Of a stretch of DNA of 64,000 bases, positions 2,798 to 64,000 are shown piece after piece. The translations under genes and the position numbers were made by a program. This DNA comes from an uncultured Alphaproteobacteria bacterium. Its GTDB lineage: Bacteria; Pseudomonadota; Alphaproteobacteria; CAAHEQ01; UBA3637. Within the stretch, counting starts at the first letter, position 1; each line of letters begins with the position of its first letter. The notes under the pieces were generated by a model that worked only from the letters and a program-made list of their open reading frames with translations, was not told where the DNA came from and did no database searches. The stretch spans positions 182,201 to 246,200 of the forward strand of contig CALXXW010000013.1 of NCBI GenBank assembly GCA_944392785.1, given 5' to 3'.

Positions 2798-2803
2798 ATC
2801 ATT

Positions 2804-2877
2804 GGTGGGTGCGACAGGGATTGAACCTGTGACCCCTACCGTGTGAAGGTAATGCTCTCCCGCTGAGCTACGCACCC
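2804..2877 (-). tRNA. tRNA-Val (anticodon CAC)
   Basis: Cloverleaf on the minus strand with acceptor GGGTGCG/CGCACCC, D-loop TAGCTCAGCGGGAGAGC and T-loop GGTTCAATCC. Anticodon loop is TTCACAC and the 3' CCA is encoded. Confidence 0.85.
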
Positions 2878-5231: not shown

Positions 5232-5435
5232 AACATTCTCCAATATCTTTCAAAGAAGGGTAAAATCTACTTTGCATAGTATAGCTATCTTTTTCTAATT
5301 CGTCAAATGGCAATACCAACCATCAAACACAAGACGGAAATCCTACACGAGATGGTGTTATAGGATATTGACCCGAGCACCAAAATGATATATCATGCTG
5401 AAGTGTAGGCATCACACGTCATTAAGGAGTAAAAA

Positions 5436-6287
5436 ATGCAACAACAGAATTGGCATGATATTATTTCGCAATTTGCCTCGGGACAGCAAAGAGTTTTAAG
5501 CGTTTTTAGGGAACTGGTCAAGACCTATCCTACAAGTAAAAGGCAGGAAGCTCTGCAATTAATGGAAGAAACAGCGGATGAAATGGAGCATCATGGATAT
5601 CACTCTTACCCTTATCACAATGATTTGAAGGAGGGATTAAGGAAACTGTTTGGACTATCTTCGCATACAGCGGAGGCTTTGATGATGAGCTATCAACTGG
5701 CAACACCAGCCACTCGCACAAAATTGAAAAAAGAGATGGAAAAAGGGTCTGATACACGGGCCTTTTCACCCTCTTTTTTGCGTCATACACCATCCATTAT
5801 ACATCGTGCCATTCTGAGAAACAAATTAAATCAATATGCAAATAAAATTCCTTCTTTGGGCAAACAAATTTTACGGATACAAACGCCTCCCGGAAGAGAA
5901 CTGACTTATCAGGATATAAATAGTCATCATCCTTTATGTGCGACATTTTTTCGTCTGGCACAGCTATCCTCGGACAAAAGACAACAAGTCATTCAACTTA
6001 TTCTTAACAGTCAACAGCTTACTCACCTATCGGATATTGACCGAGGTGTCTCCTATTTAGCGTTAAAATTATTACCATTCTTAACATCTGCTCAGCAGCC
6101 GACAAAACATTTACCGCAACAAAATGAACAAGCAGAAAACATAAAACAAACCTATAATACCGTGAAGGTTTTCGGATGGTGTTTGTTGACTCAAAATCCC
6201 TATGATCAAGATAGATGGATTAAATTAATGGAAATGAAGCCTCAAAACCAATTTATCGCGCGAGATTATGACTTTCAACATTGCTAG
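5436..6287 (+). CDS. hypothetical cytoplasmic protein
   Basis: 283-aa ORF divergent from the previous gene, followed by a terminator. No recognisable domain. Confidence 0.5.
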   Translation: MQQQNWHDIISQFASGQQRVLSVFRELVKTYPTSKRQEALQLMEETADEMEHHGYHSYPYHNDLKEGLRKLFGLSSHTAEALMMSYQLATPATRTKLKKEMEKGSDTRAFSPSFLRHTPSIIHRAILRNKLNQYANKIPSLGKQILRIQTPPGRELTYQDINSHHPLCATFFRLAQLSSDKRQQVIQLILNSQQLTHLSDIDRGVSYLALKLLPFLTSAQQPTKHLPQQNEQAENIKQTYNTVKVFGWCLLTQNPYDQDRWIKLMEMKPQNQFIARDYDFQHC

Positions 6288-12695: not shown

Positions 12696-14090
12696 ATGCT
12701 CTATTGGGGATTATTTTTATCTTTTGCCATATCTGTTCTGATTTATGCGTTTTATCCGTTCGGAGATAAGTTAAATGTCGAACGCCATCAAGCCGAAGCT
12801 TTAATCACAGCTTTTATCAATCAACACCAGGCCGCCAAAAATTATCTGGTACATGCGTTGCGGCTGCCGCCTCTCAACAACACCGGCATTGATGAAGGCT
12901 CCGAAGGTGTTGCCCTCTTTCCTCAAGAGCTGGATGATTTTATTCCGCCTTACATGGAAAGTGATCTATATCAGATTCAGGATAATAACGGAGAATTAAG
13001 AACGGCGTTGAATCCCGATCCGCAGAACAGCAACTATGTCGGAGGGGCTTTTTCCTCGGCTTTGATTTGTGTGAAACGCGATGACAGTAGCTTATCGCTC
13101 ATTCCGGATTACCACCTGACAAGTTGCCTAGACGGCTTGGCAGATCACCAATATATCATTACATACGGAGCTCGCCCCGAATGGTGGGACAATCAGACAT
13201 CCATCGAAATGAAAGGAACTTGGCGACATGCTGTTGCACGTATGACACATAATGCACCTAATTGCGGCACATTATTACATGATCCTAAAAACGGACAAAA
13301 AAACGGAGAACCCGTTTATTCTTTGGATAACGGGTATCGTATTTCGGTTGATATTGTCAACCCTCTGGTCACCCAAACACTTAAAAAAGCCGGTGTAAGC
13401 GGTGATTACATACATGACGATCTGATTGATTTATTCTTTTGCATTTCAGCCTATGGCGATCTTTATGTCCCGGGCGCTCTGTATCACTATGATGCAAACA
13501 GTAATACCCGAGAAGGATACAGTGAAACAGCCTCCCGTTGGACAAACTTGGGAACTGTTGGCGGAACATTATCGGCCCGTGTCGATAAACAGGGTTTACA
13601 ACCGACCTCCCGCCTAGATACGGGAATAACACTTAACCCCTATACAAACTATACCTTGACTCTGGTCATGCGCACAACGGATACACAAAACAACAAAACA
13701 TTAACCAGTGGTTTTCCAATCTTAACGACCGACAATCAGACGGATTTATACATTGCCGGACAGACAATTAACATGACCACGGCATCCTCTCGCCGAAACG
13801 ATATGGTGTCCATAACCTATGTCAATGACATAACAACGGGAGAAGGACGTCTCTATGTCAACGGGGAACCGGTTAAAACATTGACGGGAACAGAGCGAAC
13901 GGCTATCAGCGGGACTCTGTTCTTAGAGGCAACGAACACGCGCTTCTTCAACATCAAGTATTATGACACCGTTTTAGAAGAAGACTTTGTCTGGCAGAAT
14001 TATAAATGGGACAAACGCCGCTACAACATTCGCTTTAAAAATAAACGTAAAGTGGAGTATATTCACCGCAATCCCAATGACAAAGCTTAA
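12696..14090 (+). CDS. hypothetical membrane-anchored protein with C-terminal concanavalin-A/LamG-like lectin domain
   Basis: 464 aa. A 22-aa N-terminal hydrophobic segment is followed by an amphipathic, pilin-like helix. The C-terminal beta-rich region carries RLYVNGEPV and GTLFLEA motifs typical of LamG jelly-rolls. Confidence 0.6.
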   Translation: MLYWGLFLSFAISVLIYAFYPFGDKLNVERHQAEALITAFINQHQAAKNYLVHALRLPPLNNTGIDEGSEGVALFPQELDDFIPPYMESDLYQIQDNNGELRTALNPDPQNSNYVGGAFSSALICVKRDDSSLSLIPDYHLTSCLDGLADHQYIITYGARPEWWDNQTSIEMKGTWRHAVARMTHNAPNCGTLLHDPKNGQKNGEPVYSLDNGYRISVDIVNPLVTQTLKKAGVSGDYIHDDLIDLFFCISAYGDLYVPGALYHYDANSNTREGYSETASRWTNLGTVGGTLSARVDKQGLQPTSRLDTGITLNPYTNYTLTLVMRTTDTQNNKTLTSGFPILTTDNQTDLYIAGQTINMTTASSRRNDMVSITYVNDITTGEGRLYVNGEPVKTLTGTERTAISGTLFLEATNTRFFNIKYYDTVLEEDFVWQNYKWDKRRYNIRFKNKRKVEYIHRNPNDKA

Positions 14091-14149: not shown

Positions 14150-16111
14150 ATGATAAGAGATACAAATGAGCGCGGAGCAATCATGCTAGAGGTTATTGCC
14201 GTCTTGGCTTTAATTGGCGCAATGGGAACCCTGCTTTTTCGTCAAGTGTTGATGCGCAATCAAGAAGTCGACAATGTTAATATGGCAACCGAAGCACGTA
14301 TCATGAAGGAAAGTACTTTGGCCTATATTCAGGCTGATCGCGCTCTTTTACTTCAAAATACGACCTTAAATCCTCCTGACGGAAACGGGGGTTGTATCGT
14401 TCCCAACCAAGATGACGTTGCCGCCTTTATCCCGGACGGATATGTTGAGCTCAATTCGAGCGATCAATTCGAAGGCATTATAGATTACTACAACATCACG
14501 CTCTGTTCGTATAAGCCAACAGATGAAACGGAACCCGTTATGTATGGAATCATCGTTCCCAAAGCAGAACTCTTACCCTCGGAAATGAACCTAAAACGCG
14601 CTTCACGCGTGGCTGCTCTGATCGGATCGGGTGGTGGTGTTTGGCCCAGTCAAAACGAAGAACTCAGCGGAACGATGGGAGGCTGGCATTTACCGCCGGA
14701 TGGTCTGACTTATCCCGGCACTCCGACGTTTGTCGCTATTACGGGAATGGATATTTTTGTACCGGAACCGGAAAATTTACAGCAGTTAACAACGCTTAAA
14801 TTACAGCTGGATGATGATGCCAAGTTCACAAATTTACATGCCTCTGATTTCTTGTCCGTGGGCGCGGCAACCAATAATTGTTTTCGCAATGTGGGGACCG
14901 TCGATAAGCCCGAGTATGAAATCTTGCGCCCGGGGCAACGCAACAGCGATACAGGAGATATTTGTGATCCTCTCTTTTGGGTGGGAACGGTCGGAGCAAA
15001 CACAACCGAAGACCACTCAATACACGGACATGTCTATGCGAAACAAAACATGTATATCGGGCGAAAAAATCAAGCCAATATCCACGCTATTGCCTTAGAA
15101 AATGAAACGGCTAAAGGCGGACGCATTACCGTTTTTGATGATACAGGACGACAACGTTTGGTTATTGATGGCTCCGGCCGTCTGTTGGGCGGTATAGCCG
15201 CTAACACATCCGATATAGAAGATGACAGAAATGCCACTTTGATTCTAAAGCCCGGTAATTTACAGGATAACCTCAGTAAAGAATCCGCCAGTTTGACATT
15301 GCGCAGTTCAGATGAACAGGATGATTTGGAAATCAAAGACGGTCGCATTGTTGTGGCTCGTCAAACGCCCGATAAACTGGCCGAAAGTGCCACAACATCC
15401 TATCAACTGGATCCGGCCCATACATCGGTTGTCAACGAAATTCGGTTGGCTGCTCGAGGCGGTGCTCGTCTGAGCGATTTATTACCCAATTACATTTCTA
15501 AAACTATGGAAGCCATCACATCCAGCGGAACGGGTGCGTATTCCGAGCACACTCAAGCCGTCCCGACCTGTCCGAAAGGATATACGGCAGCCCTTATGGT
15601 CACACCGACACGTTGGGACACATCTCGTTTATCCGAGATTGATATTTCACATCAACGACGTTTAAATATCGATAATTTCTTTGTCAATGCTCCCGCAGAC
15701 GGAGGAACGGCTTATTTAAAGCGGCAGTCTGATGATAATAATGACCTGATAGATGAAGAAATCATCATCAAAAAAGAAGATAAGCGAGCCGATGACACAA
15801 CGCCCAAAATCAAAATGGAAAAAGCGCGCCTGGCTATTATGATTGATGAGGAAGATCCTCAAAACACGGCCGCTTTGGATACACAAAAGACCGGCTCTTC
15901 TTGGACCATTCGAATGGGTTATGTTGATGATAACAACCAATGGAGCGGCTCGGTGCAAGACACCATATCCGCCGTTGTTCAAACTTTCTGTGTCTATGAT
16001 CCGACCGCACATGAAGGAAATGCCAATCGCATTCCTTGTCCGGAACGTAAGACCGGTAGCCTTTGTCCCGCCGGCTGTCATGAAGATAACGGCATTTGCT
16101 ATAAGGATTAA
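14150..16111 (+). CDS. large type IV pilin-like protein (prepilin-type N-terminal cleavage/methylation motif)
   Basis: 653 aa with an AAGGAGA RBS. The leader MIRDTNERG is followed by AIMLEVIAVLALIGAMGTLLF (G at -1, E at +5). The C-terminus has a Cys-rich disulfide region. Confidence 0.6.
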   Translation: MIRDTNERGAIMLEVIAVLALIGAMGTLLFRQVLMRNQEVDNVNMATEARIMKESTLAYIQADRALLLQNTTLNPPDGNGGCIVPNQDDVAAFIPDGYVELNSSDQFEGIIDYYNITLCSYKPTDETEPVMYGIIVPKAELLPSEMNLKRASRVAALIGSGGGVWPSQNEELSGTMGGWHLPPDGLTYPGTPTFVAITGMDIFVPEPENLQQLTTLKLQLDDDAKFTNLHASDFLSVGAATNNCFRNVGTVDKPEYEILRPGQRNSDTGDICDPLFWVGTVGANTTEDHSIHGHVYAKQNMYIGRKNQANIHAIALENETAKGGRITVFDDTGRQRLVIDGSGRLLGGIAANTSDIEDDRNATLILKPGNLQDNLSKESASLTLRSSDEQDDLEIKDGRIVVARQTPDKLAESATTSYQLDPAHTSVVNEIRLAARGGARLSDLLPNYISKTMEAITSSGTGAYSEHTQAVPTCPKGYTAALMVTPTRWDTSRLSEIDISHQRRLNIDNFFVNAPADGGTAYLKRQSDDNNDLIDEEIIIKKEDKRADDTTPKIKMEKARLAIMIDEEDPQNTAALDTQKTGSSWTIRMGYVDDNNQWSGSVQDTISAVVQTFCVYDPTAHEGNANRIPCPERKTGSLCPAGCHEDNGICYKD

Positions 16112-17941: not shown

Positions 17942-18025
17942 GCGGGCGTGGTGGAATGGTAGACACGACGGTCTTAGAAGCCGTTGCCGAAAGGCGTGGG
18001 AGTTCAAGTCTCTTCGCCCGCACCA
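17942..18025 (+). tRNA. tRNA-Leu (anticodon TAG)
   Basis: Class II tRNA with a long variable arm. Anticodon loop is CTTAGAA, acceptor is GCGGGCG/CGCCCGC, and CCA is encoded. Confidence 0.85.
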
Positions 18026-21736: not shown

Positions 21737-22534
21737 ATGACGATAAAGTCTTTTTTAAAAACCATTGTACCCGTCGGTGTTATGACAGGCTCTGTTTTTC
21801 TGAGTGGTTGTCATCGGGGAGATAAGTCTTACTCGGATGTTGTCAAACCCTCTCAGAAAGCACCATCGACTTTACTTGCCGTTAATACCCAGGCAGAAAT
21901 AGAGGTGGCACGTACCGAGGCTATCTATAAAGCCATCCAAAAGATTGAGGGCGCATTCATTTCTTATTTACCCTTTCCATCGGCAGACGGAAAAATTCGT
22001 GTCGGTTTTGGTGTCCCTATTTCAGAGGAAGCTTTTTTAAAAACACAATTCTATCAACAAACAAAGAAGGGCGCGCTCCCCTATCCTCTGGCAGACAATC
22101 CCATTTTGCTCAATCAATTAAAAACAAAGGGGCAAACGGGAAAAATCCGTTTGCGTGATAAGGAAATTCGCCAACTGACAAAAGCATGGATATCTGAAAC
22201 TTACCCTCAAATCAAACAGACGCTCCCTTGCCTTGATCAACTGCCGATTTCAACGCTTGCCGCAATTATGTTGCTGGAGATGAACAGTGATTCTATACAC
22301 ATACCTGCCTCACCTTTGAGGGACTTGGCGCAAGGGGGGGTGGATTTAGAGAAAAAACTAGAAGTTTTTTTACCGGCTCAACTCTCTCCCAACGACGATG
22401 TGATTCCTCTTCCCTCTTCAAGTCGCTCTCCGAAAGTCTTCGAAAAAGCGCTTGTCACTATTTTGCGGCACAATAAAATACCGCATGTACCCCCTCAATA
22501 CATTCCCAGGCAAGTCCCGGACAATCAACGTTAA
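21737..22534 (+). CDS. lipoprotein with phage-lysozyme (GH24)-like N-terminal motif, paralog 1
   Basis: Signal peptide with lipobox LSGC. EG-x4-Y-x5-DGKIRVGFG and AAIMLLEM resemble T4 lysozyme EG...Y.D.EG..TIGIG and ALINMVFQMG. Confidence 0.5.
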   Translation: MTIKSFLKTIVPVGVMTGSVFLSGCHRGDKSYSDVVKPSQKAPSTLLAVNTQAEIEVARTEAIYKAIQKIEGAFISYLPFPSADGKIRVGFGVPISEEAFLKTQFYQQTKKGALPYPLADNPILLNQLKTKGQTGKIRLRDKEIRQLTKAWISETYPQIKQTLPCLDQLPISTLAAIMLLEMNSDSIHIPASPLRDLAQGGVDLEKKLEVFLPAQLSPNDDVIPLPSSSRSPKVFEKALVTILRHNKIPHVPPQYIPRQVPDNQR

Positions 22535-22546
22535 GGAGGCGAATTT

Positions 22547-23314
22547 ATGTCATTAAAATCTAAAATCAAAACATTTTTACCTATCGGTTTATTGGCTGCA
22601 ACAACGGCCTGGACGGCACAAAACTATCTTCAGACAGACTCTGCTTCACAGAACGAGTCCATAACGGCCCATCAATACCCTCCTGTCATTGAAACGCTTT
22701 ACCAAGAAATCTGTCAAATGCCCGAGGCCTTTATATCAACACATCCTTATGTAGACAGAAACAATGTGTTGCGTGTTGGATTTGGAACTCCCCTGGAAGA
22801 AGAGGAAATCAACGTGACTCATTTTTACCACGAGACTCCCCAAGGCGTACGCCCCTACCCTCAAAAAGAAAATTGGCAACTTGTCGACCATTTATATAAA
22901 AATGGGCAATCGGCCGATATTTTCATTCCCCGAGAGGAAATTGAACTTCTGACCAAACGTTGGCTGCATAAAAACTATGAAAAGCTTCAAAAGATATTAC
23001 CTGAAATAGGACAATTTTCACCGTCTAAACAAGCGGCACTGATGTTGTTGGAGATGACAGAACAATCCATCACGCGCGATGGCACTTTTATCGGCCTTTT
23101 TAAAAAAGCTCTTAAAACGGATCATTACATGGGGTTAGTAGCTTACATACATTTGTCACCTCGCATACATATGGTGCAGGGAAAGGAACAACTGTTGGTC
23201 TCGTCAAAAACCGACTCGTTGGAAACGGCTTTAATTATGCGTCTGACACAGCCGAATCAAGCGCATGCAGCTTTGACAAATCAACTGGCAATCAAGCAAC
23301 AAAACTCTCGATAG
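22547..23314 (+). CDS. secreted protein with phage-lysozyme (GH24)-like motif, paralog 2
   Basis: Tandem paralog sharing the EAFIS...RVGFG.P.EE...FY..T..G..PYP and AALMLLEM blocks with the upstream gene. Confidence 0.5.
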   Translation: MSLKSKIKTFLPIGLLAATTAWTAQNYLQTDSASQNESITAHQYPPVIETLYQEICQMPEAFISTHPYVDRNNVLRVGFGTPLEEEEINVTHFYHETPQGVRPYPQKENWQLVDHLYKNGQSADIFIPREEIELLTKRWLHKNYEKLQKILPEIGQFSPSKQAALMLLEMTEQSITRDGTFIGLFKKALKTDHYMGLVAYIHLSPRIHMVQGKEQLLVSSKTDSLETALIMRLTQPNQAHAALTNQLAIKQQNSR

Positions 23315-23550: not shown

Positions 23551-23627
23551 TGGTGGGTGTGGCAAGACTCGAACTTGCGACCTTTACGATGTCAACGTAA
23601 CGCTCTAACCACCTGAGCTACACACCC
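23551..23627 (-). tRNA. tRNA-Val (anticodon GAC)
   Basis: Minus-strand cloverleaf with acceptor GGGTGTG/CACACCC, anticodon loop TTGACAT and encoded CCA. A hairpin terminator lies downstream at 23523..23545. Confidence 0.85.
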
Positions 23628-36105: not shown

Positions 36106-36181
36106 GGCGGAATAGCTCAGATGGTAGAGCAGAGGAATCATAATCCTTGTGTCGGGGGTTCGATCCCCTCTTCCGCTACCA
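36106..36181 (+). tRNA. tRNA-Met (anticodon CAT; elongator, or possibly lysidine-modified Ile2)
   Basis: Cloverleaf with acceptor GGCGGAA/TTCCGCT, anticodon loop TCATAAT, T-loop TTCGATC and encoded CCA. A terminator hairpin follows at 36186..36218. Confidence 0.8.
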
Positions 36182-39882: not shown

Positions 39883-40251
39883 GGTCAGACGGTTGGGTAA
39901 TCGCTGGTACATTATAATGGTGTATCGGAGGAAAGTCCGGGCTTCACGGGAACACGATACTGGATAACGTCCAGGCAGGGTGACCTGACGGAAAGCGTCA
40001 CAGAGAACATACCACTCAAGCATGCTTGAGAAAGGGTGAAAAGGCAGGGTAAGAGCCTACCGCGTCTCTGGCGACAGAGACGGCACGACAAACCCTATCG
40101 GAAGCAAGACCAAAAAAAGAGGGACAACAGATTGGTTGTAAAAGGAGTGTTCCTGCTCTGCCCTCAAGAGGTGGGTTGCTAGAGGTAGTCAGTAATGGCT
40201 ATCCCAGACGAATGATTACCAAGACAAAACCCGGCTTATAGACCGTCTGAC
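39883..40251 (+). ncRNA. rnpB: RNase P RNA, bacterial type A
   Basis: GGAGGAAAGTCCGGGCT (P4 5' strand), ACAGAACCCGGCTTA (P4 3' strand) and a terminal P1 helix GTCAGACGGT/ACCGTCTGAC. Confidence 0.9.
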
Positions 40252-40302
40252 ATTAATACAAAAACGCACATGCCCATAGTTTTTCAAACGGTTCTTAAAA
40301 GC

Positions 40303-50739: not shown

Positions 50740-52416
50740 ATGCCAGCCTATCAATATATCTATGTCATGAAAGATTTATGTAAAACTTTTCCGGGCGGAA
50801 AAGAGGTCTTGAAACATATTTGGCTCAGTTTTTTCCCCGGCGCCAAAATCGGCGTTTTGGGTCCTAATGGCGCCGGCAAATCGACTTTGCTGAAAATTAT
50901 GGCCGGTTTAGATGAAGATTTTTCAGGCGAAGCCTGGGCCGCTGAGGGCGTAAAAGTCGGATATCTACCTCAAGAACCACAACTTGACCCAAATAAAAAT
51001 GTTATGGAAAATATCATGGATGGTGTGGGTCCTGTGCGAGACTTGATGCGTCGTTTTGAAGAAGTTAATATGGCTTTTTCCGATCCCGAGGCAGATATGG
51101 ATGCGCTTCTTGCCGAACAAGCAGAGCTGCAGGAAAAAATTGATGCTTGCAACGGCTGGGAGCTAGAACGCACCATAGAAATTGCCATGGATGCCTTGCG
51201 CTGTCCTCCGGCAGATGCCGATGTTTCCAAATTATCCGGCGGTGAAAAACGTCGTGTCGCCTTGTGCCGACTGTTGCTATCCAAACCGGATATGCTGTTA
51301 TTAGATGAACCGACAAATCATTTAGATGCCGAATCTGTCGCTTGGTTGCAAATCTATTTGAAGAACTACCCCGGAACAGTCGTTATGATTACGCATGACC
51401 GTTATTTCTTGGACAATGTGACAGGTTGGATTTTAGAAATGGATCGTGGCGAAGGCATCCCCTTTGAGGGTAATTATACCAGTTGGCTGGAGCAAAAAAA
51501 TAAACGATTGGAACAAGAACAAAACGCCGAAAACAATCGGCAAAAAATTCTTGCTCAAGAATTAGAATGGGTTCGGCAATCTCCCAAAGCTCGGCAAGCT
51601 AAGTCCAAAGCACGTATCACAGCCTATGAAGAGTTGCTGAAAAAATCTGTGGAAAAGGCTCCTGATGCCGGTCAAATCATCATTCCTCCCGGTCCCAGAC
51701 TGGGCAATCTGGTGCTGGAGGCAGAACATCTTTCCAAAGCGTTTGGCAACAAACTGTTGTTTGATGATTTATCTTTTCGTCTGCCGGCCGGAGGCATTGT
51801 CGGGGTCATAGGTCCTAACGGAGCCGGAAAAACGACCCTAATGCGTATTATTACGGGGCAAGAAAAACCGGATGGCGGAACGTTTAGAATAGGAGAAACA
51901 GTCAAATTGGGGTATGTGGATCAATCCCGAGACGCTTTGGACGATTCAAAAACGGTATGGCAAGAGATCTCGGGGGGAATGGATATTCTCACGCTGGGAA
52001 AACGAGAAGTCAATTCACGCAGCTACGTCTCTCAATTTAACTTCAAAGGAGCCGACCAACAAAAGAAAGTCGGCGTGCTATCAGGTGGCGAGCGCAACCG
52101 TGTCCATATGGCTAAAATGCTAAAATCCGGCGCAAATGTCTTATTGTTAGATGAGCCGACAAATGATTTGGATGTGGATACCTTACGAGCGCTGGAAGAG
52201 GCTTTAATGGACTTTCCGGGATGTGCCGTGATTACATCTCATGACCGATGGTTTTTGGATCGTTTGGCGACACATATTTTAGCTTTTGAAGGAGATAGTC
52301 GCGTTGTCTTTTTTGAGGGTAATTATGCCGAATACGAAGCCGACAGACATCGGCGTTTAGGAACAGATGCCGATCAGCCTCATCGCATTAAATATAAACC
52401 GATTGAACGACAATAA
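50740..52416 (+). CDS. ettA: energy-dependent translational throttle protein EttA (ABC-F)
   Basis: 558 aa with two ABC cassettes and N-terminus [49 protein letters not shown]. Confidence 0.9.
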
Positions 52417-52511
52417 CGGTAGAGTCAACATAGCCTTTAGGATGGAGAAAATACAGCAACTCTTGACAGATACGCGTTTCATGTTATCCTAAAACAAAAG
52501 GGGGAAGTAGC

Positions 52512-52763
52512 ATGACGATAAAGAGATCTTTAATGCCTTTTTTGGCTTTAGCGGCGGTAATGCCGTTGTATACGGGTTGTCAGACGACCCGTGAGACAGG
52601 TTCTAAGATTGGGTGCTCTCTTAAAACGGCCGGTTCAGAAATTGTTGATTTTTTCGATTTTTCAGCCACCTACGTCCCTAAAAGCAAAGAGGAATATGAA
52701 ACAATTATATTCCATCAAAAGCGGGCGATGGCGACGTGGGGCCCTTTGGATCACTCACGCTAA
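52512..52763 (+). CDS. small putative lipoprotein
   Basis: 83 aa with a signal peptide and lipobox LYTGC. Promoter-like TTGACA-N16-TATCCT upstream. Confidence 0.4.
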   Translation: MTIKRSLMPFLALAAVMPLYTGCQTTRETGSKIGCSLKTAGSEIVDFFDFSATYVPKSKEEYETIIFHQKRAMATWGPLDHSR

Positions 52764-52883
52764 AAAGTCCCGTATCGGCCGCACCGGGAATAGGCTTTTT
52801 CAGAACGGGACGACAGCAAATAAACCCTAAAGATACCACTAAAGAGATACTTAAAGAACAGATTAAAACCCTTTCTAATAAAA

Positions 52884-53786
52884 TCATTTTTTCTTCCTTT
52901 CAAATGCGTTATTCATACGTCCGTGATTGGCTAAATAAATACCCATTAAGATAATACTGCCTCCAACCAGTTGCAGGCGATGAATCGGTTCATGCAGAAA
53001 CAAAAAAGCTTCCAATGTGCTGAAAATCGGCATCAGGTAATAGACAAGGCTTAGTCGAACACTATCAACTTTTTGAAGAGCAATATTCCACAACAGATAT
53101 GCCAAAACCGAATTGACAATTCCCATATAGAGAATGATTAAAATAACATCCCAATCTATATAGGTCATTTTTAACGGATGTATAAGAGTCTCGTGCACAA
53201 ACATAGGCAGACATGAGAGAGCTCCTATCAGTATCGATAAAGAAAGCATCGTCACTTGACGATATCCCGAATGATGACAAGAAACCAAATAGCTATAAAA
53301 CCCAAAGGAAACCGCCATTAAAATCATCCAAAGATGTCCGCTTTGAAAAGAAAATGATGTTATTTTGCCTTTTAACACTATCATTAAAACACCTAAAATG
53401 GCTAAAGTGATTCCCCTGATTTGTACTTTAGAGACAGGTATATGACCTAAAAAATGAGCAAATAAAATTAAAAAGACAGGGCCTGTCACCGAAATTAAAG
53501 CCATATCAATAGCCGGCAATGTATAAGCAGCATAATACACACAGGTGTTGCTGAATGTGATACCAATCAGAGCCAATGCTAACACCAGACGCCACTGTCG
53601 ACAAAACAACCGACGATGTTTCCAAATTTTTCGGAACGTGAACGGAAGCAGACATATAGCCGCAATCATCCAACGAAAAAAAGAAATCTGCCACGGCATT
53701 AAAACACCAACTAAATGACTGCCAAAAATCACATTAAAGCTCCAAAAAAAGACCGCTAAAATGCCCAAACCATAATATTTCAACAT
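52884..53786 (-). CDS. DMT superfamily transporter (EamA family)
   Basis: Ten predicted TM helices with duplicated EamA halves. The start is chosen at the internal Met with an AGGAAG RBS; the track ORF extends to 54032. Confidence 0.7.
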   Translation of the reverse strand: MLKYYGLGILAVFFWSFNVIFGSHLVGVLMPWQISFFRWMIAAICLLPFTFRKIWKHRRLFCRQWRLVLALALIGITFSNTCVYYAAYTLPAIDMALISVTGPVFLILFAHFLGHIPVSKVQIRGITLAILGVLMIVLKGKITSFSFQSGHLWMILMAVSFGFYSYLVSCHHSGYRQVTMLSLSILIGALSCLPMFVHETLIHPLKMTYIDWDVILIILYMGIVNSVLAYLLWNIALQKVDSVRLSLVYYLMPIFSTLEAFLFLHEPIHRLQLVGGSIILMGIYLANHGRMNNAFERKKK

Positions 53787-53946
53787 TTCTACCACTTCCT
53801 GACGGTAATGATATAGGGCAAAAAAAACGTATTGCATCCCTCTGTAAAAAAAACATGTCAAAAGTCGATGACCCTCTTTACTTCCAGAAGAGATTATCCT
53901 TATACTGTATCTTGTTGATGAACTTTTGATCATAAGAGGAAAGAAA

Positions 53947-55110
53947 ATGAAAAAAATTCTTTTATGTTGTGCCACAGCCCTTCTGTTTTGCTCTTCCGCC
54001 AAGGCAGCCACACAGCCTTCAGAACAACCCATAGCGTCGTTCGCTCAACGTTATCAAAACGTTAAGAATGAACTGGACACGGCGCATGGCCTGAGTTATT
54101 CTTTAGATATATCCGGCATGATGCAACGGGGCGCACCTAATGGTAAGGGGACCTCTTGGCAAACGATAGCTTATGGGACAACGAATTGGGATATGTTTCG
54201 ATCTTCTCGCTGGGGAAGCGGTTCATTTCAAGCGGCCTATACGGCCGTGCGTTATGGCGGTATCAACGGAAATATATTGGGGAATCGTCTGAACATCATC
54301 ACGGGTCTTAATGACTATACCACAGCGTTGAATAATTTTAATCAACTGACATACACACATACGTTTGCCGGACGGGCCGATATATTATCCGTCATGTTAG
54401 GACAATATCCCATTTCAAACTTTGATGGCGGTGATTATAACAGCAATCAACAAATTAATTTTATCAATGAAGCCCTCAGCCAAAATGCCTCCAGCGCTTA
54501 CTCTATAGCCAGCCTGGGTGGGGCATTGACTTTGGCTCCCTCTAACACGGTTAATATCAGCATCGGCGCACAAAACGCTAATAACGTGAGCGGAGAAACA
54601 ATCAGCCTCAATAAGTTTGGAAAAGGACGCTTTACCAGCTTTGTCAACCTACTGTGGACCCCCTCCTTCCATGGACTGCCTGGGCAATATGGCTTTGTTT
54701 TATATGATCAACCCTATGTGCCGGAACAGCCTATGCATACAAAAGGGTGGAGTGTCAATCTGCAACAGGCCATCTCATCAAAAATAACGCTCTTCGCGCG
54801 GGCTAACGGGACCAATCAATCGCTGGAAAGCATTCGCCAATCCTATGTACTGGGAGGTGTTTTAAATAATCCTCTTAACCGTAACGAATTGGATCAAATC
54901 GGATTGGCCGCTGCTTTTAATAAACTCAATCGAAAGGTTAACGGTAATCAGACACGCTCTTGGGAAAATGTGATAGAGGCCTATTGGGCCTGGGGATTCT
55001 CTGACTTTTTAACACTGACACCGGATATACAAGTCTATCTTAATCCCGGAGAGGACCCTCATCAAAAAACCGCCGTTGTGACATCCTTACGAGCAACATT
55101 GATGTTCTAA
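53947..55110 (+). CDS. outer membrane beta-barrel porin, OprB-like (carbohydrate-selective porin family)
   Basis: Signal peptide MKKILLCCATALLFCSSAKA, alternating amphipathic beta-strands, a PDIQVYLNPG motif and a C-terminal Phe. Confidence 0.6.
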   Translation: MKKILLCCATALLFCSSAKAATQPSEQPIASFAQRYQNVKNELDTAHGLSYSLDISGMMQRGAPNGKGTSWQTIAYGTTNWDMFRSSRWGSGSFQAAYTAVRYGGINGNILGNRLNIITGLNDYTTALNNFNQLTYTHTFAGRADILSVMLGQYPISNFDGGDYNSNQQINFINEALSQNASSAYSIASLGGALTLAPSNTVNISIGAQNANNVSGETISLNKFGKGRFTSFVNLLWTPSFHGLPGQYGFVLYDQPYVPEQPMHTKGWSVNLQQAISSKITLFARANGTNQSLESIRQSYVLGGVLNNPLNRNELDQIGLAAAFNKLNRKVNGNQTRSWENVIEAYWAWGFSDFLTLTPDIQVYLNPGEDPHQKTAVVTSLRATLMF

Positions 55111-55243
55111 CATGTCCAACAACAAAATCCCTCTCGATTCGTAGAGTGTTATATCGTTTGTTAATAAGCTAAAAAAAGCTCATGTGCCTTGAAAGCATCT
55201 GAGCTCATTTTTACAACGCCCTATTTCCAAACGATTTGTCCCT

Positions 55244-55993
55244 TTAAAGAGGCGTTAAAATAGACGGCGTTATCTGAAAAGCATCAATCAAAGATTGTAT
55301 CTCATTTGTCTGTTTCTTTCCTGTCCAAATAGCACGTATCATAACATTTTTGGGAGAATTTTCAAAATTAACAAACTCTATAACATCTGCGCGGTATCCG
55401 TTATTTTCCAAGACATTGGCACGCAAGGCATCTGTCAACAAGGCTGCAAAACGCTCCTTCAACAAACCATACTTTAAAATAGGATCCAGCATCTTATTTT
55501 GTATTTGTTTTGCCAACTCCTTATGACAACAAGGAACAGATAAAATCAACTTAACTTGATTTTTCATAGCGTATTTCAAAACGATATCAGTTGCCGTATC
55601 ACAGGCATGTAAGCTCACCACAACATCCACACCTTGACCGTAGTTGTAGGCAGCAATATCACCTTCGATAAAATCCATTTCTTGAAATCCCAAACGCTGT
55701 TTAATTTGTGTGCACTTTTGAATAACATCTTTTTTCAGATCGACACCAATCACATGACACTCTTGCTGCCGAATTTCTTTCATAAAATAGTACAACACAA
55801 AAGTCAAATAAGATTTACCGCAACATAAATCCAAAATCGTCCAATGTTTTTTGGGAGGTAATCGATTCATGGCATCATTCAAAATAGCCAGAAAATTATT
55901 AATTTGAATATATTTATCTCTTTGATTTTTAAAAACATTACCATTCCTATCCATAACACCTAGTTCTATTATAGCTTTCCCCTTTTCTGACAA
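55244..55993 (-). CDS. class I SAM-dependent methyltransferase
   Basis: Motif I ILDLCCGKSY and an acidic residue at the end of beta-2 (GVDL). Confidence 0.6.
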   Translation of the reverse strand: MSEKGKAIIELGVMDRNGNVFKNQRDKYIQINNFLAILNDAMNRLPPKKHWTILDLCCGKSYLTFVLYYFMKEIRQQECHVIGVDLKKDVIQKCTQIKQRLGFQEMDFIEGDIAAYNYGQGVDVVVSLHACDTATDIVLKYAMKNQVKLILSVPCCHKELAKQIQNKMLDPILKYGLLKERFAALLTDALRANVLENNGYRADVIEFVNFENSPKNVMIRAIWTGKKQTNEIQSLIDAFQITPSILTPL

Positions 55994-56040
55994 GATGGGT
56001 GTTATTATGTCATAAAAAGGGGATGAAAGCCAGTCTTTTT

Positions 56041-57507
56041 TTAAATATGTATCAAACCACGGAAAAAGGCATACAGAGCCACAACGGCAATCAACAAAAT
56101 AACAGCCGCCAGCACTTTTTCCGAGCGAGACAACAATGGTCCCTCCATACCGTGTTTATGATTTTCCCATTGTGTCCACAGATAAATTGGTAGACCCAAA
56201 GCGATAAATACCACGGCCATCATCAAATAGGTAAGACCGGCGGCATACATTAACCACACCGCATATACACTGCCCAAAATGCCGGTTAAAACCGCCGAAA
56301 ATCGACTCAACCCCAACGTCATGGGAAATTCGTGATCTTCACAAATCTTCCACAGGTATAAGCAAGAGGTCAAATACGCCGGTAGCACCATAACTCCCGT
56401 AATTGATAGCATCGTATTCCAAGCATTATTCGAAAAATAAACCAATAACATGGCAAGTTGCATTAAAAGACTTGTCATCCAAAGAGAAACTTGAGGTGAT
56501 CCGGCTTTATTTTCACGCTCAAAAATTTCCGGGAACGAGCTCTTTTGAGCCATGGCATATGGCATTTCCGCCGTAATAATTGTCCATGATAACCAACTGG
56601 CTAAAATCGCAATAATCAACCCGGCATTCATCAACCACGCTCCCCATGGACCAACGATTTGCTCTAAAACACCGGCCGTGGAGGGATTCGGAATGGCTGC
56701 CAATTGAGGTTGAGTCATGTACCCAAAAGGCAAAACAGATAGTAAAATATAGATCCCCAAACAACCTAAAAACCCTAATATGGTTGCTTGACCGACCGCG
56801 GCTTGTGACTGAGCACGACCCGATAAAACGACCGCACCTTCAATGCCGATAAAGGACCAGAGCGTCACAAGCATCGTGCTTTTAATTTGTGTACCGACAT
56901 CACCTAAGTGTCTCAAGTGTTCACCCCAAAAATTCATATCGAATTTTGAGGCTTTAAAAACAAACGCAACAATAATAATGAAGATAATAAGGGGAACAAT
57001 TTTGGTGATAGTTGCGACCAAATTAATACGTATAGCTTCTTTGACACCACGTAGGACCAAAAAGTTAAAGAACCAGATTAACAAAGAGCCTCCCACAATA
57101 GAGGCTAAATTATTTCCTCCCGTAAAAGTGCCCGGAAAAAAATAATTGAGAGCGTCCATCGTAATAACGGCATATCCGACATTTCCAAAAATTTGACATA
57201 ACCAATAGCTCCAACCGATATTAAATCCTAGGTAATTGCCAAATCCGGCACGAGCATACAGATAAATACCCGATGTTAAATCTGGCTTAGCCAACGCCAA
57301 AATACGAAATGTATTAGCAATAAAATAAATACCCAACCCTGTGATAAGCCATGCTAAAATAACGGCTCCAGCTGATGCTGAAGCCGCCATATTTTGCGGT
57401 AACGAGAAGATTCCTCCGCCAATCATAGAGCTGATAACAACCCCGGCAAGACCTAAAACACCCAGCTTACCGGCTTTTGATATTTCTTTGTGTTGTTTTT
57501 TAAGCAT
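56041..57507 (-). CDS. ArcD/AaxC-family basic amino acid antiporter (arginine:agmatine or arginine:ornithine)
   Basis: 488 aa with 12-13 TM helices and the ArcD signature GGGIFSLPQNMAASA. Confidence 0.8.
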   Translation of the reverse strand: MLKKQHKEISKAGKLGVLGLAGVVISSMIGGGIFSLPQNMAASASAGAVILAWLITGLGIYFIANTFRILALAKPDLTSGIYLYARAGFGNYLGFNIGWSYWLCQIFGNVGYAVITMDALNYFFPGTFTGGNNLASIVGGSLLIWFFNFLVLRGVKEAIRINLVATITKIVPLIIFIIIVAFVFKASKFDMNFWGEHLRHLGDVGTQIKSTMLVTLWSFIGIEGAVVLSGRAQSQAAVGQATILGFLGCLGIYILLSVLPFGYMTQPQLAAIPNPSTAGVLEQIVGPWGAWLMNAGLIIAILASWLSWTIITAEMPYAMAQKSSFPEIFERENKAGSPQVSLWMTSLLMQLAMLLVYFSNNAWNTMLSITGVMVLPAYLTSCLYLWKICEDHEFPMTLGLSRFSAVLTGILGSVYAVWLMYAAGLTYLMMAVVFIALGLPIYLWTQWENHKHGMEGPLLSRSEKVLAAVILLIAVVALYAFFRGLIHI

Positions 57508-57574
57508 TTTTTTCCTTTCAATAATAGAGACAACAGCTTAAAAGCTCACATATTTTCCAAAAGCTCTTTGAACG

Positions 57575-58162
57575 TTATTTTTTGACATTGACTGCCGGTG
57601 CATAATCAAAATTTAAAAATCCGAGCGCTGTCAATGAATACCCAAAAGCCTGTGTGATATTGACAAAATTATGATAAAATTGAAAATCGCTATGTTTCTC
57701 AACATGGCGAATATCCAGCTCATGATTCAATGATTTTGTCAACCACATTTCAGCATGTGCTTTTGCAATATCGTCATCGATAAAAGTATCAAAAAATTCA
57801 ACATACTCAGCAGCCCAACCGCCAATAAATTTACCTTTTTTATCCTTGCCCCACACAATGCCGACACCTGTGGCAATAGCTTTATGATCCGTGTTTTTAG
57901 CACCGTGACCGGCCATGATAACTTCCAAAACAGCACCATGTTTAAAATTCTTTTCAACCTGTTCTACCGGCACGATATTTCCAAACAACTCCGGTGGCAA
58001 GACCGATGTATACGGCACGATATTAAAATCTTGGATTTTGGCTTGCAATAACGCCGAATCATAGCAGAATGTTTCAAATGGTTGCGGTGGGATACCATCA
58101 TCTGATTGACCGGCTCCACCGGTATGAAAAGCAAGTGTGGGATATCTTGTTCCGACTGTCAT
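57575..58162 (-). CDS. pyruvoyl-dependent arginine decarboxylase (PdaD/AaxB family)
   Basis: 195 aa, the same length as Chlamydia AaxB. The predicted self-cleavage site is Thr52|Ser53 (PYT|SVLPP), matching the AaxB proenzyme. Confidence 0.7.
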
Positions 58163-58351
58163 ATTTTCCTCCTTATAAAAAATTGATTGATAATTTCAGG
58201 CTATAAAAGCCCATGCCTGGCATATAAGATGTTTTTTTCTAAAGGACAATCTAACCAAAAGACCTAACAAAAAGGCGATATTGATAAAAAAAATCTACCG
58301 CTTATGTGTAGAGATGTGTTTCATTTTTATTGAGAAAAAAGGAGAAAAGCC

Positions 58352-58696
58352 ATGAAAAAAACACTATTATGCAGTCTGATCGTCACAGCTTTTTTGACAA
58401 CGACTGCCCATGCAGAAACATTGGTCGGTCAAGTTGAAGACATTCAAGGAAACACCCTTATTCTAACGACTGAGGACGGACAAACAAAAACATTTAAAAC
58501 CTCTGATGATACACATTATCGCAAAAAGAAAATGAAAAAAGAGCACAAGCTAAAACGTGGAAAAATGTCACCGGCCAAGGCTGTCGGCTATGAGCCCATG
58601 GTGGAGGAAGATGACTGGATCGAGTTAATCTATACTCCCTCTACCCAACAACTCGATGCCGAAGAGGTCCAAAGTATTACGGTCTATGATGATTAA
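58352..58696 (+). CDS. small secreted hypothetical protein
   Basis: Signal peptide MKKTLLCSLIVTAFLTTTAHA, a Lys-rich central patch and a terminator at 58719..58750. Confidence 0.5.
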   Translation: MKKTLLCSLIVTAFLTTTAHAETLVGQVEDIQGNTLILTTEDGQTKTFKTSDDTHYRKKKMKKEHKLKRGKMSPAKAVGYEPMVEEDDWIELIYTPSTQQLDAEEVQSITVYDD

Positions 58697-58894
58697 ATTA
58701 AATCACAAAAAATCTCGAATCCCTCTCTTGGAAAAGAGAGGGATTTATTTCATGCGGTTTTCCTCAAAAAATCAGAAAAAAAACAGTTCATCTTTCAAGA
58801 CACGGGATATCATATATACGTGTGAGTGATTACGCAACTTTTACGCTGTTTGACGTGTCATAAAAAAATCCCTCTTGAAAAAGAGGGATAAAGA

Positions 58895-58970
58895 TGGTGC
58901 CTGGGGACGGGATCGAACCGCCGACACAGGGATTTTCAGTCCCTTGCTCTACCAACTGAGCTACCCAGGC
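58895..58970 (-). tRNA. tRNA-Phe (anticodon GAA)
   Basis: Minus-strand cloverleaf with acceptor GCCTGGG/CCCAGGC, anticodon loop CTGAAAA and encoded CCA. A hairpin terminator lies at 58862..58893. Confidence 0.88.
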
Positions 58971-59225
58971 TATTGCCTTGGGGAATCTTATACACGAAAA
59001 AAAAATAAATGTCCAGCTTTTTTTTCATAAAAACACATTTTTTATCAAAATAATTTTTTATACGCCCACAGATATCACTCAGCATCCCCCGTTCCCCTTT
59101 GTCCCAAGCACAACATTTTTGATTCTCTTGAACCAGATAACCCCTTTACACCAGAGGTATATTTGTCTTCACAGAAAATATCCACAAAATCGCTTATATC
59201 AAGACATCACCCCAAAGCCGTGTTT

Positions 59226-60398
59226 TTAAGGGGAGGAAAACACCGGTTTTTCCTTGGGGACATCCGGTATTTTAGATGAGGAATCACCCGTTTTTTTGGA
59301 GCTCTTATCTTGTTTTGAAGTTGTAGATGATATCGTCGAAACAAGAGGTTCTGATTGCTTTTGCGACGCTGATTTGACCGCCACCGGTTGCTTTTGTTGT
59401 GCAACACTTCGGCTGAGGGGTTTTAAGCCTTTTCGAATCCGACGCCAGTTTTTAACATTCCATTGATGTTCTTTATAGGTTTCCGCAAAAACATGTCCTC
59501 CGGTTCCGTCTGCAACGAAATAAATGTCTTTTGTTTCCATCGGGTGCAAAACAGCTTGTAGCGATTTATATCCCGGGTTTGAAATCGGACCATCGGGTAA
59601 TCCGTAAATGACATAGGTATTATAGGGGTGTTGATACCGCAAATCCGCATATGTCAAACTTCTATTCAAATCTAAACGCCCGTTTGTCACGGCATAAATC
59701 ACCGTTGGATCAGACTGCAAGCGAATATTCTGTTCTAAGCGATTGATAAATACCGAAGCAATATGAGCACGTTCACGATCTAAAGACGTTTCCTTTTCAA
59801 CGATTGAAGCCATAACGACAGCCTCTTTCACATCACGAAAAGGCAGACCTTCGGCGCGGGTCGGCCACAGCTCTTCCAATGCTCGTCTCATAGCATTTTG
59901 CATACGCCGAATCATGGACTCTTTTGTGTCACCATAGGTGTAGTGATACGTATCCGGAAGCAATGTCCCATTTCGTGGAATGTGCTTCACTTCACCCTCC
60001 AGTCCCCTCATTCCATCCATTAAGGCCACTATCTGAGCAGATGTCAGCCCTTCAGGAACAACCAAACGTCGAACGACCGTATTTCCGCCGATCAAAATGT
60101 TCATAACCATTTTGGCGCTGGCGCCCCGTGGAAAAGAATACTCCCCAGCCTTCAATTTTTCAGCATTTCCGCTGGCACGCGTGCCTAAAACAAAAATGGA
60201 CGGACTGGCAATCACGCCTTCCTCATGCAACAGCGCAGCGACTTGTTTTAATCCTTTTCCCTTAGGAATGACCACTTCCTTACGCTCTGTCAAGGGGCCT
60301 TCGGCAACGAACTGATTATAGGTTGTAAAAACACTGCCGCCAATCAAAGACAGAACAAAAAATAGGATAAAGAAATAAATAAAGACACCGCGCCGCAT
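59226..60398 (-). CDS. mltG: endolytic murein transglycosylase MltG (YceG family) with disordered C-terminal tail
   Basis: N-terminal TM helix and a YceG domain. The last 70 aa are Ser/Lys/Gln-rich low complexity. Confidence 0.85.
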   Translation of the reverse strand: MRRGVFIYFFILFFVLSLIGGSVFTTYNQFVAEGPLTERKEVVIPKGKGLKQVAALLHEEGVIASPSIFVLGTRASGNAEKLKAGEYSFPRGASAKMVMNILIGGNTVVRRLVVPEGLTSAQIVALMDGMRGLEGEVKHIPRNGTLLPDTYHYTYGDTKESMIRRMQNAMRRALEELWPTRAEGLPFRDVKEAVVMASIVEKETSLDRERAHIASVFINRLEQNIRLQSDPTVIYAVTNGRLDLNRSLTYADLRYQHPYNTYVIYGLPDGPISNPGYKSLQAVLHPMETKDIYFVADGTGGHVFAETYKEHQWNVKNWRRIRKGLKPLSRSVAQQKQPVAVKSASQKQSEPLVSTISSTTSKQDKSSKKTGDSSSKIPDVPKEKPVFSSP

Positions 60399-63407: not shown

Positions 63408-64000
63408 TTAGGAGCATTTCTTTGTCCTGGCATCCCATCTCCCATGACACGATTTGCACTTCTCTTGGGTATTTAAACTGCTGGAACTTAAACTTGTCGG
63501 ACATCTATAACAATAGCTTCCATTCATATACCGTGGTGTGCCACTCTTATCACACTTGGCACATTCGGCCTCCGTCGCTTCATAGCCATATGAAGTGCTG
63601 CAGCTGCGGCAAGAGCCATCAGAACTCAAAAGTCCATCAGGACAATATCCTGGTAGAATACAATAACCGTTTCTCATCTCGCGTGGGGTGCTGCTCTTAT
63701 CACACTTGGAACATTCGGCTTCTGTCGCTGAAACGCCAGAATAATAGCTGCAGCTGTAGCACCCGCCAGAATCACTCAAAAATCCATCAGGACAATAGCC
63801 TGGTATAATACAAAACCCGTTTCTCATCTCGCGATTCAAACACTTGGCACATTCGGCCGCGGTCGCTGAAGGGCTAGATGAATCGCTGCAGCCCCAGCAA
63901 GCGCCAGAGGTATCCTGGAACTGATTCGCTCCACAGTTAATTAACCCACAATAGTCACCAAACATTTTGCGGGGAGTGCTACTGGCATCACACTGGGCAC
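63408..64000 (-). CDS. secreted-type cysteine-rich tandem-repeat protein, 5' partial (continues beyond the window end)
   Basis: At least three ~45-aa repeats (ATEAEC-KCDKS-TPREMRNGYC-PGYCPDG-C-SCS). The frame remains open and repeat-like (QCDASSTPRK) up to base 64000. Confidence 0.55.
   Translation of the reverse strand, partial: AQCDASSTPRKMFGDYCGLINCGANQFQDTSGACWGCSDSSSPSATAAECAKCLNREMRNGFCIIPGYCPDGFLSDSGGCYSCSYYSGVSATEAECSKCDKSSTPREMRNGYCILPGYCPDGLLSSDGSCRSCSTSYGYEATEAECAKCDKSGTPRYMNGSYCYRCPTSLSSSSLNTQEKCKSCHGRWDARTKKCS

Follow-up and report, generated by a model that had tools for sequence, protein, structure and literature searches.

A putative arginine decarboxylase-antiporter module of the chlamydial Aax type, with an AaxA-like porin nearby, in an uncultured gut alphaproteobacterium

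The DNA analysed here, referred to as the window, is a stretch of 64,000 nucleotides from contig CALXXW010000013.1 of an uncultured alphaproteobacterium. Towards its end it carries three genes whose products resemble the components of the chlamydial AaxABC system, namely a pyruvoyl-dependent arginine decarboxylase (AaxB), a basic amino acid antiporter (AaxC) and an outer-membrane porin (AaxA). We read this region as a predicted module of the chlamydial Aax type for the decarboxylation and antiport of arginine, in which the AaxB-like and AaxC-like proteins would form a pair, and to this reading we assign a probability of about 0.8. The genes, and the site on which the enzyme would depend, are the following:

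57575..58162, minus strand: aaxB-like gene for a predicted pyruvoyl-dependent arginine decarboxylase proenzyme (195 aa; PF01862 and similarity to AaxB)
58004..58009, minus strand: predicted self-cleavage and pyruvoyl-forming site, codons Thr52-Ser53 (from the translation and the PdaD alignment)
56041..57507, minus strand: aaxC-like gene for an APC-superfamily basic amino acid/amine antiporter (488 aa; TIGR00905)
53947..55110, plus strand: gene for an aaxA-like outer-membrane porin (NF051888, Pfam OprB)

According to the list of open reading frames (ORFs), aaxC starts 67 nt downstream of the end of aaxB on the same strand. The porin gene is convergent on the aaxBC strand and a methyltransferase gene fills the 930 bp that separate it from the end of aaxC. 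An earlier interpretation of the same DNA, made without database searches (the sequence-only reading), had proposed a Chlamydia-like AaxB/AaxC pair with an OprB-type porin about 1 kb away on the opposite strand; all of its ORFs are present at the coordinates given for them, and the porin, which matches Pfam OprB, lies at the distance just mentioned. Specifically, the porin ORF opens at a TTG codon at position 53926 (53926..55110, 394 aa), and an in-frame ATG at 53947, the position taken in the sequence-only reading, is the probable true start. Scans for promoters and terminators in 52400..59300 yielded no more of them than shuffled sequence did, and were uninformative on operon structure.

The AaxB-like protein matches one Pfam family only, PvlArgDC (PF01862), with 91.2 bits against a gathering threshold of 22.7 (E 8.7e-26), and its identity to Chlamydia felis AaxB is 73-74% across all 195 residues. 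A chlamydial AaxB sequence served as bait only; the database entries retrieved were the AaxB proteins of C. felis and Chlamydia sp. and the C. felis aaxABC locus. The translation of 57998..58024 on the minus strand reads NIVPYTSVL and places Thr52-Ser53 at the cleavage position, as the sequence-only reading had anticipated together with the AaxB-like length of the protein. In addition, Ser53 aligns with residue 53 of PdaD from M. jannaschii, a position occupied by Ala in the mutant structure 1n2m (S53A), and a profile search against the Protein Data Bank (PDB) pairs D35, N47, S53 and E119 of the window protein with D35, N47, S53 and E109 of PdaD, four residues that we take to provide the pyruvoyl precursor, self-processing, guanidinium binding and the general acid. 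Both PDB entries found in this way are mutants, S53A (1n2m) and N47A (2qqd), and the changes sit at exactly those columns. Residues D35, N47, Y51, S53 and E119 are among those invariant in an alignment reaching relatives of 28-35% identity. Alignment to chlamydial AaxB and to PdaD had been proposed as a check of the earlier interpretation, and in both cases the cleavage serine and the active-site residues are conserved.

Chlamydial AaxB cleaves at Ser53, and in C. trachomatis D the substitution G115R in AaxB blocks the cleavage (PMC2720952). The corresponding residue of the window protein, Gly114, is conserved. Since the catalytic and cleavage residues and Gly114 are all kept, the aaxB-like gene is intact and looks fully functional. 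The proenzyme is predicted to cleave itself into a beta chain of residues 1-52 and an alpha chain of residues 53-195 (143 residues).

Archaeal PdaD (M. jannaschii; 1n2m, 2qqd) belongs to the same Pfam family and has Ser53 and the Asp35/Asn47/Glu109 equivalents, but it is distant from the window protein (phmmer E 0.67 with a single sequence, 1e-8 with a profile) and is a biosynthetic enzyme without an antiporter or porin partner. The NCBIfam PdaD equivalog models score below their cut-offs (NF009064/TIGR00286, 35.3 against 207 and 31.2 against 107 bits), and by its sequence the window protein is placed in the bacterial AaxB branch, not in the branch captured by those models. The other identities considered in the sequence-only reading, a pyruvoyl-dependent decarboxylase of the histidine (HdcA) or aspartate (PanD) type, were rejected, as neither gives a Pfam match.

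The antiporter, whose sequence contains GGGIFSLPQNMAASA, scores 564 bits with TIGR00905 (basic amino acid/polyamine antiporter), above the cut-off of that model. It stays below the NCBIfam equivalog cut-offs for ArcD (TIGR03810, 512.7 against 591 bits), for the histidine-histamine antiporter type 2 (452 against 725 bits), for AdiC (NF007929, 156.1 against 574 bits) and also for PotE and CadB. Aligned with C. felis AaxC over 478 aa, it shows 61% identity and the same motif in transmembrane segment 1 (TM1), SSMIGGGIFSLPQNMAASA. Identity is 43-45% to ArcD proteins whose genes lie next to those for arginine deiminase, ornithine carbamoyltransferase and carbamate kinase in Azospirillum and B. thuringiensis, and 48-49% to antiporters on Salmonella and Photobacterium plasmids. 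Alphaproteobacterial AaxC has 193 columns with a conservation of 95% or more; both chlamydial AaxC sequences carry the same residue at 177 of them and both ArcDs at only 112, and at 41 positions the two ArcDs depart from a residue that is conserved throughout the AaxC clade. In a neighbour-joining (NJ) tree with 200 bootstraps, AaxC of the window lineage and chlamydial AaxC stand apart from ArcD and the other antiporters, at only 56% support. The expectation of an AaxC-like antiporter next to aaxB is borne out by the short gap and by these identities, and the other exchangers that the earlier interpretation had allowed for are not favoured by the CadB, PotE and ArcD scores. CadB, PotE and GadC were rejected as identities for this protein on their NCBIfam scores.

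The closest solved structure to the antiporter is that of E. coli AdiC (E 4e-36). AdiC residues Y74, Y93, N101, W202, I205, E208 and W293 correspond to Y82, Y101, N109, W217, I220, E223 and W308 of the window protein, and S357 is replaced by Thr; these AdiC residues are presumably those that bind arginine or act in gating. The antiporter may work like AdiC, yet it is no AdiC orthologue, and the substrate specificity that we would predict for it is arginine:agmatine exchange.

To follow the distribution of the module, one genome per GTDB species was scanned; 426 contigs encode an AaxB relative, and the locus counts given here refer to the best 80 of these 426. AaxB relatives at 79-88% identity to the window protein number in the hundreds. 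The best 80 (76-89% AaxB identity) are almost all metagenome-assembled genomes (MAGs) titled Alphaproteobacteria, with sources given as the gut of human, yak, sheep, goat, deer, buffalo and rabbit, or described as gut or rumen. The aaxC gene directly follows aaxB in 79 of the 80 loci, and the contig of the 80th ends before that point. The phyletic distribution of the pair, proposed earlier as a check, thus shows adjacency in every locus that reaches past aaxB; on the same counts, the remark that the module is unusual for this lineage does not hold.

Two loci (L022 and L052) encode an AaxB 84-87% identical to that of the window and an AaxC of only 59% identity, which branches outside the main alphaproteobacterial clade; in these cases the antiporter may have been replaced. 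Some of the bins (loci L008, L010, L018, L084 and L077-L083) are titled Holdemanella biformis, Lactobacillales, Desulfovibrionaceae, Limosilactobacillus gorillae or Opitutales, and the Firmicutes labels among them are probably binning errors.

The porin matches the NCBIfam model NF051888, 'porin AaxA', which is specific to Chlamydia, with 269 bits (E 5.5e-80), covering model positions 119-438 only; the N-terminal region of chlamydial AaxA has no counterpart in the window protein, the match opening at model position 119. It also matches, far less strongly, the generic family Pfam OprB (PF04966; 82 bits against a threshold of 22.9), and BLASTP aligned it with C. pneumoniae AaxA at 36% identity over 358 residues (E 2e-69). 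The guess that this porin is the counterpart of AaxA therefore gained in precision, the protein being specifically AaxA-like and not a generic OprB. Its N-terminus resembles a signal peptide and its C-terminal residue is Phe. The AlphaFold2 (AF2) model, built from 38 sequences, predicts a 16-stranded barrel (pLDDT 87, pTM 0.82), and the best PDB match of this model is P. putida OprB, 4GEY (E 5e-20, TM 0.73, 16% identity); by sequence, no PDB chain matched the porin even at E 10. OprB shares with the window porin the Pfam family and the predicted 16-stranded barrel, whereas the gene context of the latter is amino-acid decarboxylation and not sugar uptake.

A search of 5.8 billion proteins with C. 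felis AaxA returned 72 matches, consisting of chlamydial AaxA and of about 45 gut-metagenome porins at 33-43% identity, the latter having 46-56% identity (in one case 92%) with the AaxA-like porins of related MAG loci. Since only chlamydial and gut-metagenome porins emerged, the window porin is assigned by sequence to the sole non-chlamydial branch of the AaxA family detected in these searches. A tblastn search of 72,556 plasmid records with the porin gave no match at E <= 1e-5, hence no generic OprB outgroup was available.

In 26 of the 80 loci, aaxBC has an AaxA-like porin gene no more than 3 kb away. Its placement varies: the order is B-C-A in nine loci and A-B-C, as in Chlamydia, in one (L010); in 13 the gene is upstream by 0.6-3 kb on the same strand, and in three it is inverted, two of these being downstream as in the window. 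Two porins of a paralogue clade that were checked, in two gut MAGs (L097, 6001..11365; L098, 6001..10460), adjoin conserved genes for RimB-like, 7TM-transglutaminase and ATP-grasp (RimK-like) proteins, and not aaxBC. A third porin, of the L084 clade, is divergently adjacent to aaxBC in locus L099.

Several observations weigh against our interpretation of the region. Functional characterisation covers, so far, chlamydial members only. The porin score of 269 bits is short of the 600-bit AaxA equivalog cut-off of NF051888, and close paralogues of the porin occupy other contexts. In the window the three genes are not contiguous in the order A-B-C, the porin being found 930 bp beyond aaxC on the opposite strand, behind an unrelated methyltransferase gene. 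In addition, no porin gene is found within about 8-10 kb in 26 related loci whose flanks are complete. As to the enzyme, a 77%-identical AaxB of Cetobacterium sits with agmatine deiminase and N-carbamoylputrescine amidohydrolase, without an antiporter; and agmatine-consuming genes were looked for in 64 kb of this genome only and could lie elsewhere.

The points that concern the porin would fit a two-part system of AaxB and AaxC, next to which a general-purpose porin happens to lie, with no dedicated role in the passage of arginine or agmatine. The inverted strand and the intervening gene, the lack of such a porin nearby in half of the related loci with adequate flanks (26 of 52), the paralogues beside RimB-like, 7TM-transglutaminase and ATP-grasp genes, and the annotation of its Pfam family as carbohydrate-selective all point in that direction. 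On the other hand, in all 26 species with a porin in the fetched flanks (up to 10 kb on each side) the gene is no further than 3 kb from aaxBC, and its arrangement there (of which at least four occur) has arisen independently several times. In the NJ tree the aaxBC-linked porins, that of the window included, cluster apart from the unlinked paralogue clade, and the only relatives of the porin outside the gut-metagenome set are chlamydial AaxA proteins, which are encoded in the aaxABC operon. We regard a porin placed there by chance as a possibility to be entertained tentatively, and we lean somewhat towards a porin that is the dedicated third part of the system. As for the complete three-part system put forward in the sequence-only reading, relatives of all three components are present, and it is the participation of the porin that is only suggested, since this gene is not always linked to aaxBC.

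The way in which such an Aax-type module would operate can be drawn by homology with the C. pneumoniae system (PMC2720952) and by analogy with E. coli AdiA/AdiC. Extracellular arginine would cross the outer membrane, probably through the AaxA-like porin with its OprB fold, and AaxC would import it in exchange for cytoplasmic agmatine. AaxB, once self-cleaved between Thr52 and Ser53 into the 52-residue beta chain and the 143-residue alpha chain carrying an N-terminal pyruvoyl group, would convert arginine to agmatine and CO2, using one cytoplasmic proton per turnover. The exchange of Arg(+1) for agmatine(+2), together with the use of protons, would raise the internal pH and generate an inside-negative membrane potential. 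The benefit may be acid tolerance (during stomach passage or in acidic gut niches), extra energy conservation, or both. The AdiA/AdiC system of E. coli (AR3) follows the same proposed logic of arginine import, proton-consuming decarboxylation and agmatine export; however, AdiA is a large pyridoxal phosphate enzyme, unrelated to the pyruvoyl enzyme AaxB, and AR3 has no dedicated porin.

A different role for the enzyme is indicated by the Cetobacterium locus, whose context shows that an AaxB-type enzyme can serve polyamine biosynthesis. In this case AaxB of the window would supply agmatine for polyamines, and the neighbouring transporter would do no more than import a basic amino acid, be it arginine or another; in archaea and in some Bacteroidota, polyamine synthesis is a role of pyruvoyl arginine decarboxylases. 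Against this stand the invariant adjacency of aaxB and aaxC wherever the contig reaches and the absence of agmatine-converting genes, as no gene for agmatine deiminase, N-carbamoylputrescine amidohydrolase, arginine deiminase or ornithine carbamoyltransferase was found in the 64-kb window or beside aaxBC in any alphaproteobacterial locus. The clade-specific residues of the antiporter, moreover, are common to chlamydial AaxC and to decarboxylase-linked antiporters, and not to ArcD. Taken together, we judge a biosynthetic role improbable. The Cetobacterium locus itself (L089/L090, 8001..13938) also has a pyruvoyl histidine decarboxylase nearby, and no porin.

ArcD, of the arginine deiminase pathway, is a member of the same TIGR00905 subfamily and the next-closest functional class to the window antiporter by score. 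An antiporter of the ArcD type (arginine:ornithine), or one exchanging histidine for histamine, uncoupled from the decarboxylase, would agree with the high NCBIfam scores for both classes (513 and 452 bits), yet we hold it to be very improbable: both scores are under the curated cut-offs of 591 and 725 bits, no arcABC genes are nearby, genes of the arginine deiminase pathway and for histidine decarboxylase are found neither in the window nor beside aaxBC in related loci, and identity is 43-45% to ArcDs defined by context against 61% to AaxC.

The remaining features around the module were compared with it in composition, taking as reference 42 window genes (GC 0.442 +/- 0.022):

55244..55993, minus strand: S-adenosylmethionine (SAM)-methyltransferase gene (Methyltransf_32), 249 aa, between aaxC and the porin gene; GC 0.348, z -4.3, stands out
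52884..53786, minus strand: EamA transporter gene, divergent from the porin gene; GC 0.375, z -3.0, stands out
58352..58696, plus strand: gene for a small secreted protein, 114 aa, divergent from aaxB; GC z -1.2, native
58895..58970, minus strand: tRNA-Phe gene, between mltG and the aax module

The GC content of the porin gene (z +0.6) and of aaxC (z -0.9) is native, and that of aaxB (z -1.8) goes with a mildly low GC3 (z = -2.6). The methyltransferase and EamA genes are present in none of the 80 related loci, and this absence, together with their deviant GC, indicates that both are probably later insertions; on the same grounds they were rejected as parts of the system. The methyltransferase gene that splits the porin gene from aaxBC looks, in particular, like a newcomer. 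The EamA ORF as listed (to 54032) overlaps the porin start, and its real start is probably a Met near 53786.

The rest of the window is ordinary chromosome, with pheT, a class I aminoacyl-tRNA synthetase gene, accBC, prfC, tig, clpPX and macAB-tolC, as well as polA, mla, secD, yajC, ettA, mltG, fabF and fabG. The fabF-mltG neighbourhood recurs beside aaxBC in loci L084 and L099, with inversions; FabF and FabG of L084 are 66-71% identical to those of the window. A search for a direct repeat derived from tRNA-Phe (an att-like copy of its 3' end) gave nothing, and the ORFs scanned in the module region include no integrase. A recent genomic island inserted at the tRNA-Phe gene, which directly adjoins the module, would account for the somewhat low GC3 of aaxB and for the very high inter-phylum identity of AaxB, but it is hardly credible in view of the missing repeat and integrase, of the native GC of the genes for AaxA, AaxC and the small protein (only the methyltransferase and EamA genes look foreign), of the presence of the module in 80 or more related species and of the neighbourhood common to L084 and L099. 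We found, accordingly, no sign of the recent horizontal acquisition that the sequence-only reading had suggested. In conclusion, native GC, the lack of att repeat and integrase, and the recurring fabF-mltG neighbourhood all indicate that the aax module is an old, vertically inherited resident of this gut alphaproteobacterial lineage.

The small protein encoded at 58352..58696 combines a signal peptide with beta strands and a loop rich in Lys. Of the 80 related loci, 39 encode a homologue that is likewise placed upstream of aaxB and divergent from it; the chlamydial loci have none. The protein has no Pfam or PDB match, also by profile search, and a weak ExtJ-like NCBIfam match is below cut-off; the single-sequence AF2 model (pLDDT 57) was too weak for a fold search. 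It is a candidate accessory component of the aax module and the one element of the locus without a known counterpart. Two similar GC-rich hairpins are found in this part of the window, one after the tRNA-Phe gene (58868..58889) and one after the small gene (58718..58745).

Elsewhere in the window, the minus strand at 63408..63965 contains a Cys-rich ORF of 185 aa with about three tandem repeats of a module of about 45 residues (…EAECAKCDKS.TPR.M.NG.C..PGYCPDG…), and a class A bacterial RNase P RNA (303 bits) is located at 39885..40254 on the plus strand. Further tRNA genes lie at 2803..2877, 17942..18025, 23551..23627 and 36106..36181, and ORFs of 250-650 aa without a Pfam match at 4044..5243, 5436..6287, 12696..14090, 14150..16111, 21737..22534 and 22547..23314.

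By comparing the locus with known systems, it appears that the closest named relatives of all three window genes are the families of chlamydial AaxABC (C. pneumoniae, Chlamydiaceae). As in Chlamydia, AaxB has 195 aa with Thr52-Ser53 and its gene is directly followed by aaxC. Unlike in Chlamydia, the porin gene is convergent and past a methyltransferase gene instead of being the first of the operon, and its product is about 60-90 residues shorter than chlamydial AaxA; the small secreted protein gene upstream of aaxB has no equivalent there; and the host is a free-living gut alphaproteobacterium, whereas chlamydiae are obligate intracellular. Giles & Graham 2007 and Smith & Graham 2008 are said to be studies of AaxABC. 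Experiments on the chlamydial system established that it exchanges arginine for agmatine and that its porin has a stimulating effect (PMC2720952). According to Giles et al. 2009 (PMC2720952), the ancestor of the Chlamydiaceae gained aaxABC horizontally, after the split from the Parachlamydiaceae, from a source that was not identified.

In NJ trees, the chlamydial clade is supported at 97.5% for AaxC and 72-75% for AaxB, and the main alphaproteobacterial AaxC clade at 95.5%. The deeper order of the chlamydial, main alphaproteobacterial, 'Opitutales'-labelled, L084 and L022/L052 groups has a support of 21-42% for AaxC and 39-72% for AaxB, and the chlamydial sequences are not nested in the sampled alphaproteobacterial radiation. 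Given the weak deep support and the lack of nesting, we claim neither a donor nor a recipient. The aax module shares ancestry with chlamydial aaxABC through an ancient inter-phylum transfer in either direction. A more far-reaching view, that gut Alphaproteobacteria are the reservoir, possibly the donor pool, of chlamydial aaxABC, and that the small Lys-rich beta protein would be a fourth, periplasmic component, is speculative and seems to us unlikely.

An aaxABC locus was also observed in a MAG labelled 'Victivallaceae' (L087/L088, Logan SRR25820369/68), with C. felis-like neighbours (aro genes, DAO, mdh and pgi), a MACPF protein and a GC of 0.37; this label is probably wrong and the organism chlamydia-like.

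An Aax-type system was known already and is common in this lineage, and no new mechanism is revealed here. The source annotation already calls the homologues of related MAGs 'pyruvoyl-dependent arginine decarboxylase', and our literature search turned up no relevant account of this system for Alphaproteobacteria or RF32. What is newly seen is that the closest non-chlamydial relatives found for the porin occur in gut MAGs, and that about half of the loci have, upstream of aaxB, a gene for a small secreted protein as a conserved neighbour of the system.

AAX has so far been regarded as peculiar to the Chlamydiaceae, and relatives of all three components are now found in free-living gut and rumen Alphaproteobacteria, in the window and across the 80 genomes. 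The porin is the most distinctive of these components, the non-chlamydial relatives found for it being gut-metagenome porins only, and the loci described here provide a comparative set for asking about the origin of the chlamydial system. For the bacteria themselves, these data suggest that a widespread uncultured gut lineage makes agmatine, a host-active amine, from arginine, and that it may rely on the turnover of arginine to agmatine for acid survival or energy.

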